Shown: positions 3,059-50,129 of the stretch, piece after piece
Layout: the number at the start of each line of letters is the position of its first letter
Numbering within the stretch: position 1 is the first letter of the stretch
Assembly (NCBI GenBank): GCA_013298875.1
Contig: JAAFJH010000001.1
Coordinates: forward strand, 7,030-71,029
Source of the DNA: Synechococcales cyanobacterium bin2.concoct.b11b12b14.033
GTDB taxonomy: Bacteria; Cyanobacteriota; Vampirovibrionia; Caenarcaniphilales; Caenarcanaceae
Reading direction: 5' to 3'
DNA length: 64,000 nt
Position numbers and translations under genes: made by a program
The notes under the pieces: model-generated
The model's input: only the letters and a program-made list of their open reading frames with translations
Told to the model about the DNA's origin: nothing
Databases searched by the model: none

Positions 3059-4378
<1,320 letters not shown>

Positions 4379-4400
4379 GTAGTAGCTTACTTAAAAAAAT

Positions 4401-4430
4401 GGGGGAGACTTGAAAATACTTTTCTCCCCT
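4401..4430 (-). terminator. Rho-independent terminator-like hairpin (7-bp GC-rich stem, 14-nt loop) followed by an A/T run; T-tract lies on the minus-strand reading
   Basis: GGGGAGA(4402-4408)/TCTCCCC(4423-4429). The reverse complement gives hairpin + UUUUUUU (plus-strand AAAAAAA at 4394-4400). On the plus strand the tail is weak. Confidence 0.4.
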
Positions 4431-4437
4431 ATCATAT

Positions 4438-4639
4438 GCAATGGCGTTAAGTTAAGGAAAGAAGGTATAAATAAGTAAAAAATAAGAACTTTCAGTTGGG
4501 TCATAAACAGAATTTCGACAGAGTCCAACGAGTATAAGGGAAGGAAGAAGTCATGCAAGAAAAAGGTCAGCTTCTAAGTCAGCTCGTTACCGAAAGTACT
4601 CACGCAAAGCTTGTTTTTAGCTTAACTTAACGCCATTGC
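4438..4639. repeat. 202-bp element bounded by perfect 19-bp terminal inverted repeats (MITE-like element or structured RNA with long closing stem)
   Basis: gcaatggcgttaagttaag (4438-4456) is the exact reverse complement of cttaacttaacgccattgc (4621-4639). The 164-bp interior is non-coding (only a 26-codon ORF). Confidence 0.5.
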
Positions 4640-4666
4640 CCTTTAGGGGGTTAGGGGGCTTTTGAT

Positions 4667-5500
4667 TTATTTAAAAAAGCCTTTTGAAATGGCGAATAAA
4701 ACGATTGAGCCGACTATTAACCGGTAAAGCATAAATGGGAATAAAGATTGAGTTTGTAAAAATTTAAGTAAAAATTTAATTGCAAAATAACCAATAATCG
4801 CCGAAAAAACTGCTCCGATAATAGCTGCTGTCCAGCTAACTTCAAGGGATTTGGTATTTTTGAAAGCTTTAAAAACTTCATATAAGCCAGCTCCTAAAAT
4901 AACTGGAGAACCCATCAAAAAAGAAAAACGAGCTGATTCAGGCCGCGAAAAGCCTAATAATCTGGCAACCGTAATAGTTGAACCTGATCGCGAAACACCC
5001 GAAAACAATGCAGCCGCTTGCCCAAAGCCTATAAGAAGAGCTTGCCACCAATTAATATTTTTTTCTAAATCGTTTATGGTAACAGGTTTTAAATCAGTTA
5101 TAAAAAGTAAAATACCAACTACAATTAAACAAATAGTTGTGATTGTTAGGTTTTGATCAATTTTTTCAAAGAAGTCATGTGCAAAAAAACCGAATATAAT
5201 GGCTGGCAGACTGGCAATTATTATTTTAAAACCGAGGCTAGCAAAAAAGCTTTTCGGTGAACTTAAACTCTTGAATGTCTCAATGGCAATTTCAAATAAG
5301 TCTTTTCCAAAATAAATAAAAACGGCTATTAAAGTTCCCAAATGCAAAAAAGCAGATAATCCTAATCCAATGGCTGGCCAACCAAAAATATCGGGTACTA
5401 AGCGTAAATGAAAAGAACTACTAATTGGCAAAAATTCAGTTAAGCCCTGCACAATTCCCAGCACCATACAACGTATAATTTCTTCGTATTTTTCAAGCAT
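4667..5500 (-). CDS. uppP: Undecaprenyl-diphosphatase (UppP/BacA)
   Basis: 277 aa polytopic membrane protein; GxxQGxTEFLPISSSxH motif at N-terminus and conserved SRSG / PESARFSF region. Confidence 0.9.
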   Translation of the reverse strand: MLEKYEEIIRCMVLGIVQGLTEFLPISSSFHLRLVPDIFGWPAIGLGLSAFLHLGTLIAVFIYFGKDLFEIAIETFKSLSSPKSFFASLGFKIIIASLPAIIFGFFAHDFFEKIDQNLTITTICLIVVGILLFITDLKPVTINDLEKNINWWQALLIGFGQAAALFSGVSRSGSTITVARLLGFSRPESARFSFLMGSPVILGAGLYEVFKAFKNTKSLEVSWTAAIIGAVFSAIIGYFAIKFLLKFLQTQSLFPFMLYRLIVGSIVLFAISKGFFK

Positions 5501-5774: not shown

Positions 5775-6350
5775 ATGGCTTTTGAAAAAGAATTTGAAAA
5801 TTTATTTCGTAGTTTCGCTGAACTAAGAAACCAGCAGGCAAAAACTGATGAGCAATTGAAACGTACTGACGAACAGATGAAGTTTACTGATGAAAGACTT
5901 TCCGCTAAGTTAGAAAAATTATCCAAAGAACTAGGAAATATTGGTAATAATAATGGTGCCGCCGCGGAAGAATTCTTTTGGAATGGATTGAAAAATAAAA
6001 AAGAATTTGAGGGGATCAAAATTGATTATACTGAAGCCAATGTCAGGCCGCCAAGCAAAAAAGGTATTCAAGATGAATTTGACATACTTATGTGGAACGG
6101 TAATTCAGTAGTTATTGTTGAATCAAAATACAAAGTACATCCAAATTTAGTAGAGCAAATCAAAGAGAAAAAAATCCCAAATTTCAAAACCTTAATTCCG
6201 GACAGAGCTAATCATAAAATTTATTGTGCGATTGCTGGCTTTTCAATACCCGACGAAGTTGCCAAATCAGCGAAAGAAGAAGGATTTTTTATCATAAGGC
6301 AGTCAGGAGATAATATGGTAATTGAAAAGGGTGAAATTAAACCTTATTAG
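5775..6350 (+). CDS. Hypothetical protein: N-terminal coiled coil plus C-terminal PD-(D/E)xK-like motif (DUF3782-like)
   Basis: 191 aa; heptad-rich N-terminus (EQLKRTDEQMKFTDERL...); C-terminal D(EFD)...x13...E-S-K arrangement (DEFDILMWNGNSVVIVESKYK) compatible with a restriction-endonuclease-like fold. Confidence 0.3.
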   Translation: MAFEKEFENLFRSFAELRNQQAKTDEQLKRTDEQMKFTDERLSAKLEKLSKELGNIGNNNGAAAEEFFWNGLKNKKEFEGIKIDYTEANVRPPSKKGIQDEFDILMWNGNSVVIVESKYKVHPNLVEQIKEKKIPNFKTLIPDRANHKIYCAIAGFSIPDEVAKSAKEEGFFIIRQSGDNMVIEKGEIKPY

Positions 6351-6398
6351 CGGCTATTCAATTCTTGAATTGAGGGAAAAGATGTAAAAGCTATACTC

Positions 6399-7517
6399 TT
6401 ATGGCATTAGGCGGCTGATAATCTCAGTGGAAAGTAAAAAACCTTTTGGGGTAATTTTTAAATAATTGTTTTCTAGTTTTATCAAATTTTGGTTTTGTAA
6501 ATCCCTGATTAAATGCTCTTTGCCGGCTAATAAATCAATTTTATATTTAGTCTGATAATCTTTCAAATTTAAACCCCATTTAGTACGTAAAGGTAGCATC
6601 AAGTCTTCCAAAGCTGGATTTCTCTCTAATATTTTTTGATTACTTAATGAATTTTTTATATATTCGTCCAAATTTTCGGTATTAGCTTTTCGATTACCCT
6701 TTATGAATTCATGTGCTGAGACTCCGAAACCCCAAAAGTCTGTATTTTTCCAATAATTTAAATTATGCTTCGATTCAAAACCTTTTTTGGCGAAATTACT
6801 AACTTCATATTGCTCAAATCCTTTTTCCAAACATAATTTCTGCAGTATTTCATACATGTCTTCTAAACTCTTTTCTTGAGGTAATAAAGGATTTTGTGAA
6901 TTAGTATATATTTTGGCAAAAGGAGTATTCTCTTCAATACTTAATCCATAACAAGAAATATGCTCAATCGGTAATTCAAAAGCTTGTTTAATGCTTTCAG
7001 TCCAGCTTTGTATGGTTTGTTTAGGTAAGCCATAAATTAAATCAAGACTAATATTTTCAAAACCTTGCTTATGAGCATTTATAATTATATTTTTAGCTTC
7101 GATAGCATTATGTCCTCGAGCCAGCCTTTGTAATAATTCATCATTAAAAGTTTGTACTCCAACACTCAAGCGATTTATACCTAAAGTTTTAAAGCCTTGC
7201 AATTTATATTCGTCAGCAGTGCCTGGATTACATTCCAAGGTAATTTCAACTTTTGGGTCAAATTTAAATTGAGAATATAAAGTTTCAAACAATTCTTGCA
7301 ATAATTCAATCGGTAAAATAGATGGCGTACCCCCGCCTAAATATAAAGTTTGAATTAAATTATCATTTGACTGAAATACCCTATTTTTAATTTCTTGGCA
7401 GAGAGCTTTGATATAAGGCTCAAATAATTTTCCAGTATGATCCAACTTAACCGTAAAATTACAGTAAGGACAATGCGTTTTGCAAAAAGGAATATGTATA
7501 TAAATTGAACTTGGCAT
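6399..7517 (-). CDS. hemW: Radical SAM HemW/HemN-like protein (heme chaperone / oxygen-independent coproporphyrinogen III oxidase family)
   Basis: 372 aa; N-terminal IHIPFCxxxCxYCNF radical-SAM cysteine triad; GGGTPS motif; HemN C-terminal-like tail. Confidence 0.85.
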   Translation of the reverse strand: MPSSIYIHIPFCKTHCPYCNFTVKLDHTGKLFEPYIKALCQEIKNRVFQSNDNLIQTLYLGGGTPSILPIELLQELFETLYSQFKFDPKVEITLECNPGTADEYKLQGFKTLGINRLSVGVQTFNDELLQRLARGHNAIEAKNIIINAHKQGFENISLDLIYGLPKQTIQSWTESIKQAFELPIEHISCYGLSIEENTPFAKIYTNSQNPLLPQEKSLEDMYEILQKLCLEKGFEQYEVSNFAKKGFESKHNLNYWKNTDFWGFGVSAHEFIKGNRKANTENLDEYIKNSLSNQKILERNPALEDLMLPLRTKWGLNLKDYQTKYKIDLLAGKEHLIRDLQNQNLIKLENNYLKITPKGFLLSTEIISRLMP

Positions 7518-7986
7518 TTATTAGATAATGATAAACACTAATTCTTAGATTTACGCAAAAGGAAAAAAGTAAAAAAATTATTTAAAGTGAATTTGGTAAA
7601 CGAAAAAAACAAAAAACCTCTGATAGGTATTCCCTATGAGTGATTTGATGTATTACTTATTGTTGCTTGACATTTGTTTTATTGCTACTTACTTTTCAGA
7701 TACCCTCTCAGTAGGTCTTATTCGGTTTGTTACTTTTGGGCGAAGAAGGTAGTATTCCGAGTTTGTGATAGTTATGGAATGGAATTAATTCAGCTAATTA
7801 GAGAAGAAAGAAGTGGATAAGCAAAATAATAAAAAATTGGAAAATCAAGCGAAATCCCTAAATTAAAAAATGTATTAATGCAATATTAAAACAGAACTGA
7901 ATATGTTTATAATTTAAAAAAAGTGTTTATTTTTTGGATGGGTAAAGTATAAATATTAAAGAATAAAAAAACTAAAAAATTATTTT

Positions 7987-33490: not shown

Positions 33491-33510
33491 AATTTATTTT
33501 TTTAGCTGAA

Positions 33511-33685
33511 CTAGTTTGATAATTTAAAATATAAAGCTTTTATTAAAAATAAGCGGGAAATAACTGACTTTTTAAGTAATTTTTAACTTTTTTAATTAAC
33601 TCAAACAAATCCTTAGACGCCAAGAATAATGATTGTTTTTAATTTTATTTTCCAAAACTTAAGATTATTACTTTTAGATTTTTGT
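33511..33685. repeat. Copy A of a roughly 170-bp duplicated upstream/5'-leader segment
   Basis: ctagtttgataatttaaaatataaagcttttattaaaaataagcgggaaataactgac...ccttagacgccaagaataatgattg... is about 95% identical to 34168-34335; lies between divergent fba and the 33763 gene. Confidence 0.8.
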
Positions 33686-33762
33686 TCATGTGAAGGTTTG
33701 TTTTAAAGTTCTCAATGATAGTCTTTGGTATATTTATTAAGTAAACTTTTAAAGGCAAAACA

Positions 33763-34107
33763 ATGACCGATTCAATCAGAGCAATTTCCCCTCAAAGCTG
33801 GAGAAACCTCGGACGAGAACTTACCCCTAGGGAAGAGGTTAGACAACGGGCAAAAAAATATTTACCTAATGCACAAGAACCTATTCTACCATTATCAGCC
33901 CCAAGAACTAAGCCAACTACTCCACAAAATGAAGGAAGTACTAATACAAATTCAGCACATTCAGAAAGTAATGACTTTCCCGATCACGTAAGTAGATTTG
34001 ATTTAAATGATAAACAGTTTTCTCTGCTGCCACCGGATAAGCAAGCTGAATTAAGTAAGAATGGCGGAACGATACCAGGCTGGTTAGCAAAAAGACTCTT
34101 AGGATAG
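33763..34107 (+). CDS. Hypothetical hydrophilic protein, paralog of the next gene's N-terminus (candidate secreted effector)
   Basis: 114 aa, no signal peptide, Pro/Ser/Thr/Asn-rich. Its first codons (atgaccgattcaatcagagcaatttcc) are recognisably homologous to the start of the 34424 gene, and it shares the duplicated upstream segment. Confidence 0.45.
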   Translation: MTDSIRAISPQSWRNLGRELTPREEVRQRAKKYLPNAQEPILPLSAPRTKPTTPQNEGSTNTNSAHSESNDFPDHVSRFDLNDKQFSLLPPDKQAELSKNGGTIPGWLAKRLLG

Positions 34108-34167
34108 TACCGCATAATTAATAGTTTCAAACCATAAAGTTAAAAGTGATTTCAATCCATTTTTTAA

Positions 34168-34335
34168 CTAGTTTGATGATTTAAAATATAAAGCTTTTAT
34201 TAAAAATAAGCGGTAAATAACTAACTTTTTAAGTAATTTTTAACTTTTTTAATTAACTCAAATAAATCCTTAGACGCCAAGAATAATGATTATTTTTAAT
34301 TTTATTTTTCATAGTTTGAGATTATTATTTTTTGT
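34168..34335. repeat. Copy B of the roughly 170-bp duplicated upstream/5'-leader segment
   Basis: Near-identical to 33511-33685 (a handful of substitutions); directly upstream of the 34424 gene. Confidence 0.8.
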
Positions 34336-34423
34336 CAATTGGTCAAACGAAGGTTTATTTTTAAATTCTTTAGTGTTAGGCTGTAAATTATATTTACTAA
34401 ACAAACTTTACAGGTAAAGAATA

Positions 34424-35629
34424 ATGACAAATCCAATTGGAGCAACTTCCACAGGACAAAAATATCAAACTCCAAGAAATAGTTTAAAACAAACTTGGGA
34501 GGAGCCTTCAGCTAGAACTATGGCTGAATTTGAGGCACAACAAGCCCAATCTCTAAGGGTTCCTAATCTTGAGGTAATAAAGGAATTGTTTACGAATGCT
34601 AAAACTGAAGCCCCCCAAAGCAAACTTTCAACTCCCGCCAGTAAATTATTAGAACCAGCTAATCAAAATCTTCAATTAACTGCTGAATTGCCAACTGATA
34701 AATTACTTCAAGAGTATGATACTTCACTCCAAACATTGGCTGCTGAGCATTATGCCAACTTACATGCTTTAACCCAATCAAATGAAGCAGATATTGAGGA
34801 ATTAAAAAGTAATATTGAAACAAAATTTAAAGAATTCTCAGCCAAAGAACTTCGGTCTCATCACGAAGCCGTAAAAAGAGCAGAAGAAGCCTTACTTTTA
34901 GCTAAAGCAGATTTGGCAAATGAAGAGAAAAAATTACTCGATATTAAGGGAGATTCACTAGAAGCTAAGAAAGCCAATTTATTAAAAGCTCACCAGAAAG
35001 CTCTGCAAACTGCTGGAAAAGAACATGAAAAAGCTGTGTCAAATGCAACTGGAGCCTATTATTTGAAAAAGAATAAATCGGAAGAGTTGGCAGAAAAAGT
35101 TAATAGTGTGTCAACCGCTTTTCTTTCTCAATTACCCCAAGAAGGGAAATCCACAACGCCTAATTCATTTCAAGATTCTATTACTGGATTAGGAGTATTG
35201 AAAAAGAATCTTCTTTCTTCAGCTAAAGCTAAACCTCAGTCAAATAATTCAGGTACGCCAACTACTTCGGAGCCATTAAGTAATAATACTACTTCCTCCA
35301 ACAACAATGAGTGGTTACCTAAAGCAGGTCAATCAATGCTTACCCCAAGGACAAAACCGTCAGTTTCACTTCCTAATAATGAAACAAGTGCTTCAAAACC
35401 AACGATTGAATCAATGACGACTCAGATTAAAAATAGTAATTTTATTAGTGCGGAAGATAAACAACAAAGACTTAGCTTAATTAAGGATTTTGATGAAATG
35501 CTTTCGGAAGGTAAAAAAGGAGAAGCCTTTAACCACTTAAACAAAATGATAACTAATAGAGAAGGAGTGCTAGCTAGTAAACTTAAAGACCTCTGGAATG
35601 CAACTCACCCAAATAATCCAATCGGTTAA
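34424..35629 (+). CDS. Hypothetical coiled-coil / low-complexity protein (candidate secreted effector)
   Basis: 401 aa; no signal peptide, disordered N-terminus, central coiled coil, S/T/N-rich tract (SNNSGTPTTSEPLSNNTTSSNNNEW). Confidence 0.5.
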   Translation: MTNPIGATSTGQKYQTPRNSLKQTWEEPSARTMAEFEAQQAQSLRVPNLEVIKELFTNAKTEAPQSKLSTPASKLLEPANQNLQLTAELPTDKLLQEYDTSLQTLAAEHYANLHALTQSNEADIEELKSNIETKFKEFSAKELRSHHEAVKRAEEALLLAKADLANEEKKLLDIKGDSLEAKKANLLKAHQKALQTAGKEHEKAVSNATGAYYLKKNKSEELAEKVNSVSTAFLSQLPQEGKSTTPNSFQDSITGLGVLKKNLLSSAKAKPQSNNSGTPTTSEPLSNNTTSSNNNEWLPKAGQSMLTPRTKPSVSLPNNETSASKPTIESMTTQIKNSNFISAEDKQQRLSLIKDFDEMLSEGKKGEAFNHLNKMITNREGVLASKLKDLWNATHPNNPIG

Positions 35630-49112: not shown

Positions 49113-50129
49113 TTGTTGTTAGACTTGCTTATGATTATTCGCCCAGGATTAAGTGTACTCAGACAAGCTTTTTCTCTTACAGATGTTAGTCAAGCTAAAG
49201 CTCCAGTTGAAGTTGAAGATCAATGGAGGAGTGGACTTCGCTTACCAGATGGAATTAATTCTCAGGATTCAGGAATAATACCTACTTCTAATAATAAGCA
49301 GATAACGATTGAAGAGTCTGGCCTATCAGCTTGGGCTTTTAATATCTTGAAAAAAACAGGTTTACTAACTGTAGAAAAAATACTACAATCCATTCAAGAA
49401 AATAATGGAAATCTTCCAAAGGGTACGGTAGAAAATTCAAGCAAAACAGGGCGTGAAATTATAAATTATGCACTAACTAAAAATGCTGAGCAGGAAGGTG
49501 AAACGTCAATTGAAGAGTCTGGCTTGTCAACTAGAGCTTTGAAAATCTTAACTACAGAAGGTTTACTAACTGTAGAAAAAATACTACAATCCATTCAAGA
49601 AAATAATGGAAATCTTCCAGAGGGTACAGTAAAAAACTCAAGCGATACAGGGCGTGAAATTATACATTATGCACTAACTAAAAATGCTGAGCAGGAAGGT
49701 GAAACGTCAATTACGGATACGGAACTTGGTTTAGAGATACAGTATTTTAGTGTTTTATTGAGGAGCGGTTTATTCACCGCCGAAGATGTACTCGAAGCAA
49801 TTCAAGAAAATAATGGAGCTCTTCCTTATGGTACATTAGAAAACTCAAGCCAAACAGGACGTAAAATTATAAATTTTGCCTTAAATATAAATGCTAAGAA
49901 AAAAGATAAAACGTCAATTACGGAACTTAACTTAGACATAAGGTATATTAATGCTTTGTTAAAAAAAGGTTTATTTACGGTTGAAGATGCATTCAAAGCA
50001 CTTTCCCAAAAACAAACAATTTGTAGAGATCAAGGAGTAATTAAAGTAGCTGTTTTAGGGTTTTGGGCTAGACAAAGTGAACAAGCTAAACTTTTGCCTA
50101 CTGGATTAAAAGCAAAAGAGGCGGACTAG
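49113..50129 (+). CDS. Protein composed of four tandem RNA-polymerase-alpha-CTD-like helix-hairpin-helix repeats
   Basis: 338 aa; four units of 67-69 aa (IEESGLSxxALKILxxxGLLTVEKILQ...GRExIxYAL...) match the alpha-CTD pattern E-L-x-L-S-V-R-x-x-N-x-L-K-x-x-G-I-x-T-V-x-D-L. The underlying 201-bp DNA repeats R1 and R2 are nearly identical. Confidence 0.55.
   Translation: MLLDLLMIIRPGLSVLRQAFSLTDVSQAKAPVEVEDQWRSGLRLPDGINSQDSGIIPTSNNKQITIEESGLSAWAFNILKKTGLLTVEKILQSIQENNGNLPKGTVENSSKTGREIINYALTKNAEQEGETSIEESGLSTRALKILTTEGLLTVEKILQSIQENNGNLPEGTVKNSSDTGREIIHYALTKNAEQEGETSITDTELGLEIQYFSVLLRSGLFTAEDVLEAIQENNGALPYGTLENSSQTGRKIINFALNINAKKKDKTSITELNLDIRYINALLKKGLFTVEDAFKALSQKQTICRDQGVIKVAVLGFWARQSEQAKLLPTGLKAKEAD
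49308..50129 (+). repeat. Tandem array of four 201-207-bp coding repeats (starts 49308, 49509, 49710, 49917)
   Basis: R1 vs R2 about 90% nucleotide identity over 201 bp; R3 and R4 are progressively diverged. Confidence 0.8.

Follow-up and report, generated by a model that had tools for sequence, protein, structure and literature searches.

A very probable MITE of the IS4 family lies between the convergent eno and uppP genes in a Caenarcaniphilales genome

We analysed a 64-kb stretch of genomic DNA (the window) and found, between the convergent eno and uppP genes, a 202-bp element that is bounded by perfect 19-bp terminal inverted repeats (TIRs) and carries a short remnant of a transposase gene. 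We conclude with high confidence that this element (4438-4639, plus strand) is a non-autonomous MITE of an IS4-family insertion sequence (IS), near the IS4 and IS4Sa subgroups. The first-pass annotation had proposed a MITE as one of two readings of the locus, the other being a 6S-like structured RNA. The MITE reading gained support, as the arms are the TIRs of a transposase-encoding IS4-family group with many MITEs.

The 19-bp perfect inverted repeat claimed in the first-pass annotation is real. The left arm (IR-L), GCAATGGCGTTAAGTTAAG, occupies 4438-4456 on the plus strand, and its exact reverse complement (IR-R) lies at 4621-4639 on the minus strand. Both were read from the sequence and recovered by a repeat search, which leaves 164 bp between the perfect arms and a total span of 202 bp. 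At 88% complementarity the arms reach 26 nt (4438-4463 and 4614-4639). Throughout the 64-kb window, GCAATGGCGTTAAGTTAAG matched these two arms only, even with three mismatches allowed; 0.06 matches were expected in the shuffle control, and none of 100 shuffles gave two. The pair 4438-4456/4621-4639 is also the sole long near-perfect short-range inverted repeat in the window. With 19 of 19 TIR positions paired and a length of 202 bp, the element lies well within the size range of MITEs (below ~600 bp, with TIRs), and it shares its TIR with full-length IS.

Position 4438 corresponds to the left end of the IS, and position 4639 to its transposase-3' end. IR-L resembles the ends of E. coli IS4 and fits the IS4-type end consensus. 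It is followed by an A-rich subterminal segment (4457-4498, plus strand) that corresponds, by blastn, to the untranslated 5' region of the parent IS. Over 50 nt, window positions 4438-4485 share 82% identity with the left end of a full-length Arcobacter IS (L081:2966-3013; loci in other genomes and contigs are given by L numbers). The segment 4457-4498 had no blastn counterpart in the Caenarcaniphilales relics L063 and L009. By its best named UppP and Eno homologues, the source organism belongs to Caenarcaniphilales or stands close to it. These two relics are solo IS ends in a single metagenome-assembled genome (MAG) of the same order, and they share the right 141 nt of the element (4499-4639, plus strand) instead. 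The blastn identity of this part was 92.2% to L063:286-426, 92.0% over 125 nt to L009:1082-1206 and 94% over 52 nt to L106. The inferred deletion junction was placed near 4498/4499. The plus strand thus reads IR-L, a 5' leader of ~42 nt, the junction, the last 37 transposase codons with their stop, and IR-R, an order that, judged from the sequence, is the classical structure of a MITE formed by internal deletion.

The coding remnant occupies 4507-4620 on the plus strand and comprises the last 37 codons of an IS4-family transposase, TEFRQSPTSIREGRSHARKRSASKSARYRKYSRKACF, followed by a TAG stop (4618-4620), as identified by BLASTP and tblastn. The stop codon directly abuts IR-R, and the reading frame is the one used beside IR-R by full-length elements. 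The peptide matched the C-terminus (residues 400-435) of the Caldilineaceae transposase encoded at L002:6322-7629, a protein of 435 aa (44% identity, E = 2e-8, BLASTP). It is 89% identical to the relic in L063 and also aligns with relics at other loci. With the L002 transposase as tblastn query we obtained a match to L063:213-404, which keeps ~66 transposase codons. The window element has no functional transposase of its own, only the 37-codon C-terminal relic. Since this relic is present and the adjoining DNA is 92% identical to solo IS relics, we regard the element as an internal-deletion derivative. No other transposase homologue was found in the 64-kb window by tblastn.

We also considered the small open reading frames inside the element. 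A 25-codon ORF on the plus strand (4553-4630), MQEKGQLLSQLVTESTHAKLVFSLT, is preceded by the Shine-Dalgarno-like GGAAGGAAG. It was judged spurious and discarded as a small protein or toxin since the conserved frame is that of the transposase relic: L002, L025 and L063 share the frame that starts at 4459/4507, whereas the frame of 4553-4630 is not conserved at the protein level. A 55-aa ORF on the minus strand was rejected as a gene because it had no Pfam family match, and none was found for the remaining small ORFs of the element either (22-55 codons).

Next to its occurrence in the window, the 19-mer is a widespread IS end. An exact-match scan for GCAATGGCGTTAAGTTAAG, with one genome per species, gave 92 stretches. 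The carriers are Caldilineaceae and Anaerolineaceae (Chloroflexota), Synergistia, several Acidobacteriota, many Campylobacterota, Actinomycetota, Deltaproteobacteria/Desulfobacteraceae and one Caenarcaniphilales MAG. When the flanks of all matches were compared, the inward sequence varied by lineage and the outward sequence was that of the host. A search for partner ends, which tolerated a few mismatches, returned inverted pairs in two size classes, 114-212 bp (MITEs) and 1400-1724 bp (full-length IS). MITEs ending in the 19-mer occur in genomes of at least six phyla; one Synergistia MAG holds 14 identical 212-bp copies, and Caldilineaceae have many copies of 147 bp and 126 bp. Perfect 8-9-bp direct repeats, which are the footprint of DDE transposition, border ~39 of the pairs, while about one third of the sister pairs have none. 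At non-palindromic targets the duplication abuts the outer G of the end, and this G therefore belongs to the element.

A few of the 92 matches are chance or conserved-gene matches. In three Acinetobacter species (L010:4350, L015:1543 and L083:4641) the 19-mer lacks a partner end, and both of its flanks are conserved and identical across the three species; on this evidence these copies sit inside conserved sequence, and not all 92 matches appear to be transposon ends. A separate observation concerns Arcobacter and Campylobacteraceae MAGs (L081:2901-3013 and L004:1558-1627), in which two 19-mers in the same orientation lie 51-65 nt apart. Each is preceded by GGGTCAG(G/T)(T/C), and the arrangement corresponds to a solo left end with a further insertion directly behind it in the same target motif.

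The long elements bounded by the 19-mer measure 1400 bp (L002, L017, L025, L027, L072 and L091), ~1500 bp (L034 and L050) and 1724 bp (L081). Homology to an IS4-family transposase was detected by tblastn in the 1400-bp and 1724-bp elements; in the ~1500-bp elements L034 and L050, no match to the L002 transposase reached E<=1e-3. A single protein of 435 aa (6322-7629) is encoded by the 1400-bp Caldilineaceae element L002:6261-7660; it scored 164.6 bits against NCBIfam transpos_IS4_1 (cutoff 115) and also matched Pfam DDE_Tnp_1. This protein shares 24% identity with InsG of E. coli IS4 (E = 4e-13). It has more than 1600 database homologues, most of them on contigs of ~1.4-1.7 kb, and its few named homologues carry the annotation 'IS4 family transposase'.

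The ends point to the same family. The E. coli K-12 IS4 ends TAATGCCGATCAGTTAAGG and TAATGCCAGTCAGTTAAGC agree with (G)CAATGGCGTTAAGTTAAG at 14 of 18 positions. The published end consensus is -AATR--------WTW for the IS4 subgroup, with a target duplication of 10-13 bp, and CA------T for the sister IS4Sa subgroup, with a duplication of 8-10 bp (PMC2266710, Table 1). Read from its C, CAATGGCGTTAAGTTA agrees with both of them (the 5'-NA... type). The IS4-family target duplication is ~8-13 bp; the sister elements, with 8-9 bp, fall in this range and the window copy has none. From these comparisons the parent IS belongs to the IS4 family and stands close to the IS4 and IS4Sa subgroups. The clade with this 19-bp end is IS4/IS4Sa-like and apparently unnamed. 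Its end is identical in at least six phyla, even between transposases that are only ~37% identical.

Compared with E. coli IS4 (insG), the full-length relatives are similar in their ends, in their size (1400-1724 bp) and in having a single DDE_Tnp_1/transpos_IS4_1 transposase with the stop beside IR-R. However, their transposase shares only 24% identity with InsG, the end carries an extra terminal G, and the duplication is 8-9 bp in the clade, whereas the E. coli K-12 copy has 12 bp. The window element differs further from E. coli IS4 in that the transposase has been lost.

As a check on bias, we also fetched elements by transposase homology alone (49-51% identity, and one plasmid copy at 40%). 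These elements end in TCACT(G/A)CCATTAAGTTAAG: they share the inner half of the end but not the outer half, and their duplications measure 9-10 bp. The plasmid copy, on the Sulfurospirillum plasmid pSulSP, encodes an 'IS4 family transposase' (40%) and has the TIR TCACTACCATTAAGTTAAG, with the common inner part TTAAGTTAAG and a 9-bp duplication, GCCTCCCCC. It differs from the present type in the outer half of the TIR (TCACTACCA versus GCAATGGCG). In annotated plasmids the nearest named element is ISPa1635, at 34% to the L002 transposase, and no clear TIR of this type was seen around ISPa1635 in L120.

Several known systems resemble the element in part. MIC231 elements are non-autonomous, have IS4-family TIRs, are mobilised in trans and carry passenger genes. 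The window element shares the first two traits, and presumably the third, with MIC231 and related IS231-derived cassettes; it differs in containing a transposase relic only, without passenger genes, and in belonging to another subgroup. Correia elements (Neisseria), ERIC/IRU, RUP and BOX are likewise short intergenic repeats bounded by TIRs, and they are often transcribed as part of a 3' or 5' UTR, in which the paired TIRs make a long RNA stem. However, each of those families counts tens to hundreds of copies in a genome, and their effects on RNA are documented, whereas here one copy is visible. Two other identities were rejected. GTTAAGT fits the GTTRRRY of an integron attC site, which is contradicted by the 8-9-bp target duplications and the DDE transposase of full-length copies. 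A Tn3-family end was suggested by GGGGTCAG flanks in Campylobacterota, and this flank proved to be the duplicated target.

Target choice in the clade is a subject of its own. Loci with the end ...TTAAGTTAAG (L002-L093, L107-L111 and L119) show near-absolute target sites that are specific to the lineage. The target is GGGTCAGKT in Campylobacterota, GCGTWACGC within GTNACGC arrays in Synergistia, GCNNNNGC in the loop of an ATTCCC/GGGAAT REP-like hairpin in Caldilineaceae, and CGCNNNAGCG within a TTCCCA/TGGGAA hairpin in another lineage. The arms beside the duplication are palindromic above chance (2.7 of 4 adjacent positions, with ~1 expected). IS231A is known to prefer the symmetric target GGG(N)5CCC. 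The clade resembles the IS4 and IS4Sa subgroups in a marked preference for symmetric or structured target arms; specificity for target arms has already been reported for these subgroups, and the IS231 subgroup is described in the same work (PMC2266710).

At the window copy no target-site duplication was found; the flanks, ...TATCATAT on the left and CCTTTAGG... on the right, share no direct repeat. Immediately beside the element the left flank reads ...CTCCCCTATCATAT and the right flank CCTTTAGGGGG..., that is, ...CTCCCC plus 8 nt on one side and 6 nt plus GGGGGTTAGGGGG on the other. CCTTTAGGGGG recurs unchanged beside the same IS end in L063, and AGGGGGTTGGGG stands beside the L009 end. The flank motif TAGGGGGTTAGGGGGC occurs once in the window. 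By their sequence, the window flanks look like the hairpin-type target of the clade. Either the flanks of this copy are old or, as seems more likely, it arose when two copies recombined at a rearrangement junction. Since the gene order at eno and uppP is wholly different in the closest relatives, a rearrangement junction is a plausible explanation for the missing duplication. In a Caldilineaceae MAG, the 8-bp flanks of the full-length copies at L017:3651-5050, L027:4224-5623 and L072:570-1969 are not direct repeats but inverted (GCCTTCGC ... GCGAAGGC) or unrelated, which suggests IS-mediated inversion or copy-copy recombination.

One more feature was seen beside the IS4-like relic in L063. At L063:1-121, on the minus strand, an ORF starts with MLADLVSIFVSFDDFCKEFEK... 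and ends at the contig edge. Its N-terminus presumably resembles those of other DDE transposases (an IS982-like 'DDFC' motif), and the ORF may belong to a second IS that truncated the IS4-like copy.

The 64-kb window contains one copy of the element, and no autonomous copy was found in the source organism within these 64 kb. L095, a Logan contig of the same organism, stops at window position 4467, 30 nt (k-1) inside IR-L. This suggests a repeat boundary at 4438; the element may be multi-copy in the source genome, and the contig break is the sole basis for that. Altogether, the Logan contigs L094, L095 and L001, from independent short-read assemblies of the same organism, end at window positions 4422, 4467 and 4637, and so all break within or beside the element. 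The breaks at 4422 and 4637 are unaccounted for by a simple repeat boundary and may reflect strain polymorphism of the spacer. A metagenome scan with an interior 22-mer of the subfamily gave no matches, and one with the TIR plus 4 nt gave a single short relic. In the closest relatives (UppP 85%, Eno 94%) we found no empty site: both genes have different neighbours, and no MITE is present there.

Two other repeats were noted in the window. Two AT-rich upstream regions of ~275 nt (33491-33765 and 34148-34426) are 90% identical, and each ends at the ATG of a plus-strand ORF (33763-34107, 114 aa; 34424-35629, 401 aa, no Pfam domain). They had no Rfam match at E<=1 and may be a duplicated promoter or leader. 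At 49308-49916 there are three tandem repeats of 201 nt (67 codons), with 90% and 68% identity to the first, inside an ORF (49113-50129, 338 aa) that has a weak match to an RNA-polymerase-alpha-CTD-like helix-hairpin-helix.

The genes on either side were assigned by Pfam as enolase (eno, 3062-4378, plus strand) and the undecaprenyl-diphosphatase UppP/BacA (uppP, 4667-5500, minus strand), which bears out the earlier placement of the element between these two convergent genes. The minus-strand hairpin with a U7 tract, also described before, is present too: GGGGAGA (4402-4408) pairs with TCTCCCC (4423-4429), and A7 lies at 4393-4399 on the plus strand. Read on the minus strand, the hairpin 4402-4429 is followed by CA and U7, i.e. 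CAUUUUUUU. In sequence and fold this terminator-like feature (4393-4429, minus strand; hairpin 4401-4430) is located outside the MITE, 8 nt beyond IR-L. It probably belongs to uppP as its terminator, and the MITE now stands between the two. On the plus strand we found a weak terminator-like hairpin that the first-pass annotation had missed, GCCCTTTAGGGGGTTAGGGGGC (4638-4659), followed by TTTTGATTTA. This feature (4638-4669) abuts the right arm and is outside the MITE save for 2 nt; it is a possible eno terminator and belongs to the G-rich target-type flank. After eno, the only terminator-like site on the plus strand is 4638-4659, and after uppP the only one on the minus strand is 4402-4429, both beyond the MITE. 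The 3' UTRs of eno and uppP therefore probably read through the element and could form a 19-26-bp stem, and the two transcripts could overlap as sense and antisense over ~270 nt.

The history of the locus may be pictured as follows. The element derives from a parent IS of ~1.4-1.7 kb that lost nearly all of its transposase gene by internal deletion. For IS10 and IS50/Tn5, which belong to the IS4 family, cut-and-paste by a DDE transposase is established. By analogy, the element would be mobile only if a full-length copy provided a cognate DDE transposase in trans; this enzyme would bind the two 19-bp ends, bring them into a synapse, cut the element out and reinsert it elsewhere with an 8-9-bp staggered cut. 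It would have landed, or have come by recombination between copies, in a G/C-rich hairpin region between eno and uppP. There it would now separate each gene from its terminator-like hairpin, with no function of its own.

The last point bears on one of the competing explanations, which accepts the transposon origin and adds to it that the MITE has been co-opted. The 19-26-bp UTR stem, or the sense/antisense overlap of ~270 nt, would then modulate mRNA stability or termination. Such effects are on record for some MITEs. Both terminator-like sites lie beyond the MITE and the stem is thermodynamically dominant in the folds of both strands, as co-option would have it. However, nothing is conserved at the locus, where relatives have neither the element nor the gene arrangement, and any effect would be incidental to insertion in a hairpin-rich spacer. 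We therefore consider co-option unlikely. We are equally doubtful of a broader idea: that the unnamed clade inserts near-absolutely into GC-rich hairpin loops or short palindromes of the REP-like and terminator type, and that the MITE has been retained here as a functional RNA stem or antisense module. If it were true, terminator and REP hairpins would be a general 'safe harbour' and a regulatory insertion niche for this clade.

The second reading of the first-pass annotation placed a small RNA, 6S-like or otherwise rod-shaped, on the minus strand downstream of uppP, with the 19-bp helix as its closing stem and the hairpin at 4402-4429 as its terminator. The element is similar to 6S RNA (RF00013) in its length of ~200 nt and its terminal closing helix, and the minus-strand hairpin with U7 just past the left arm is genuine. 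Moreover, the whole 281-nt region folds modestly more stably than its shuffles (z about -2.6 to -2.8). However, this stability stems wholly from the 19-bp stem. The folding check on the minus strand that had been proposed placed all of the excess in the TIR stem and none in the interior: the 164-nt interior behaves like shuffled sequence (z = +0.39 for the minus and +0.15 for the plus strand) and is not a rod. The proposed Rfam scan, 6S RF00013 included, found nothing at the locus; neither 6S nor any other plausible family was matched in 3800-5300 even at E<=10, and at the gathering threshold the whole window gave one tRNA. A tRNA/tmRNA scan at the locus was negative as well, and no promoter-like site for a minus-strand RNA was found in 4640-4700. 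In addition, the arms are transposon ends that enclose unrelated interiors in many phyla, and the interior here is a relic of a transposase gene. The closest relatives, L063 and L009, retain 92% identity with one arm only, so the closing helix cannot form in them, and it is not the helix that is conserved. In contrast to 6S RNA, the element thus has no covariance-model match, no rod-like interior with a central bubble and no structure kept in relatives. Since Rfam gave no match, the interior is shuffle-like and the relatives cannot form the closing helix, we rejected this reading, which we regard as extremely improbable.

An inverton, in which a site-specific recombinase would flip the 164-bp segment and so alter antisense or terminator activity between eno and uppP, is hardly credible either: perfect 19-bp inverted repeats on both sides of a short intergenic stretch are what inverton finders look for, but these repeats are IS4-type transposon ends with target duplications elsewhere, the segment contains no promoter-like site, the neighbouring ORFs scanned against Pfam encode no recombinase domain, and the transposase relic keeps a fixed orientation to IR-L and IR-R, as in full-length elements.

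The element at 4438-4639 should be annotated as a MITE or IS4-family remnant, neither as an sRNA gene nor as a small protein gene. It is ordinary selfish DNA and leaves the current understanding of transposons unchanged. MITEs from this IS4-like clade are found in Chloroflexota, Synergistota, Acidobacteriota, Campylobacterota, Actinomycetota and Vampirovibrionia. Repeats of the clade break metagenome assemblies and mark rearrangement junctions, and the 19-mer can serve as a convenient marker for the ends of this widespread IS4-like clade, whose members target hairpin loops.
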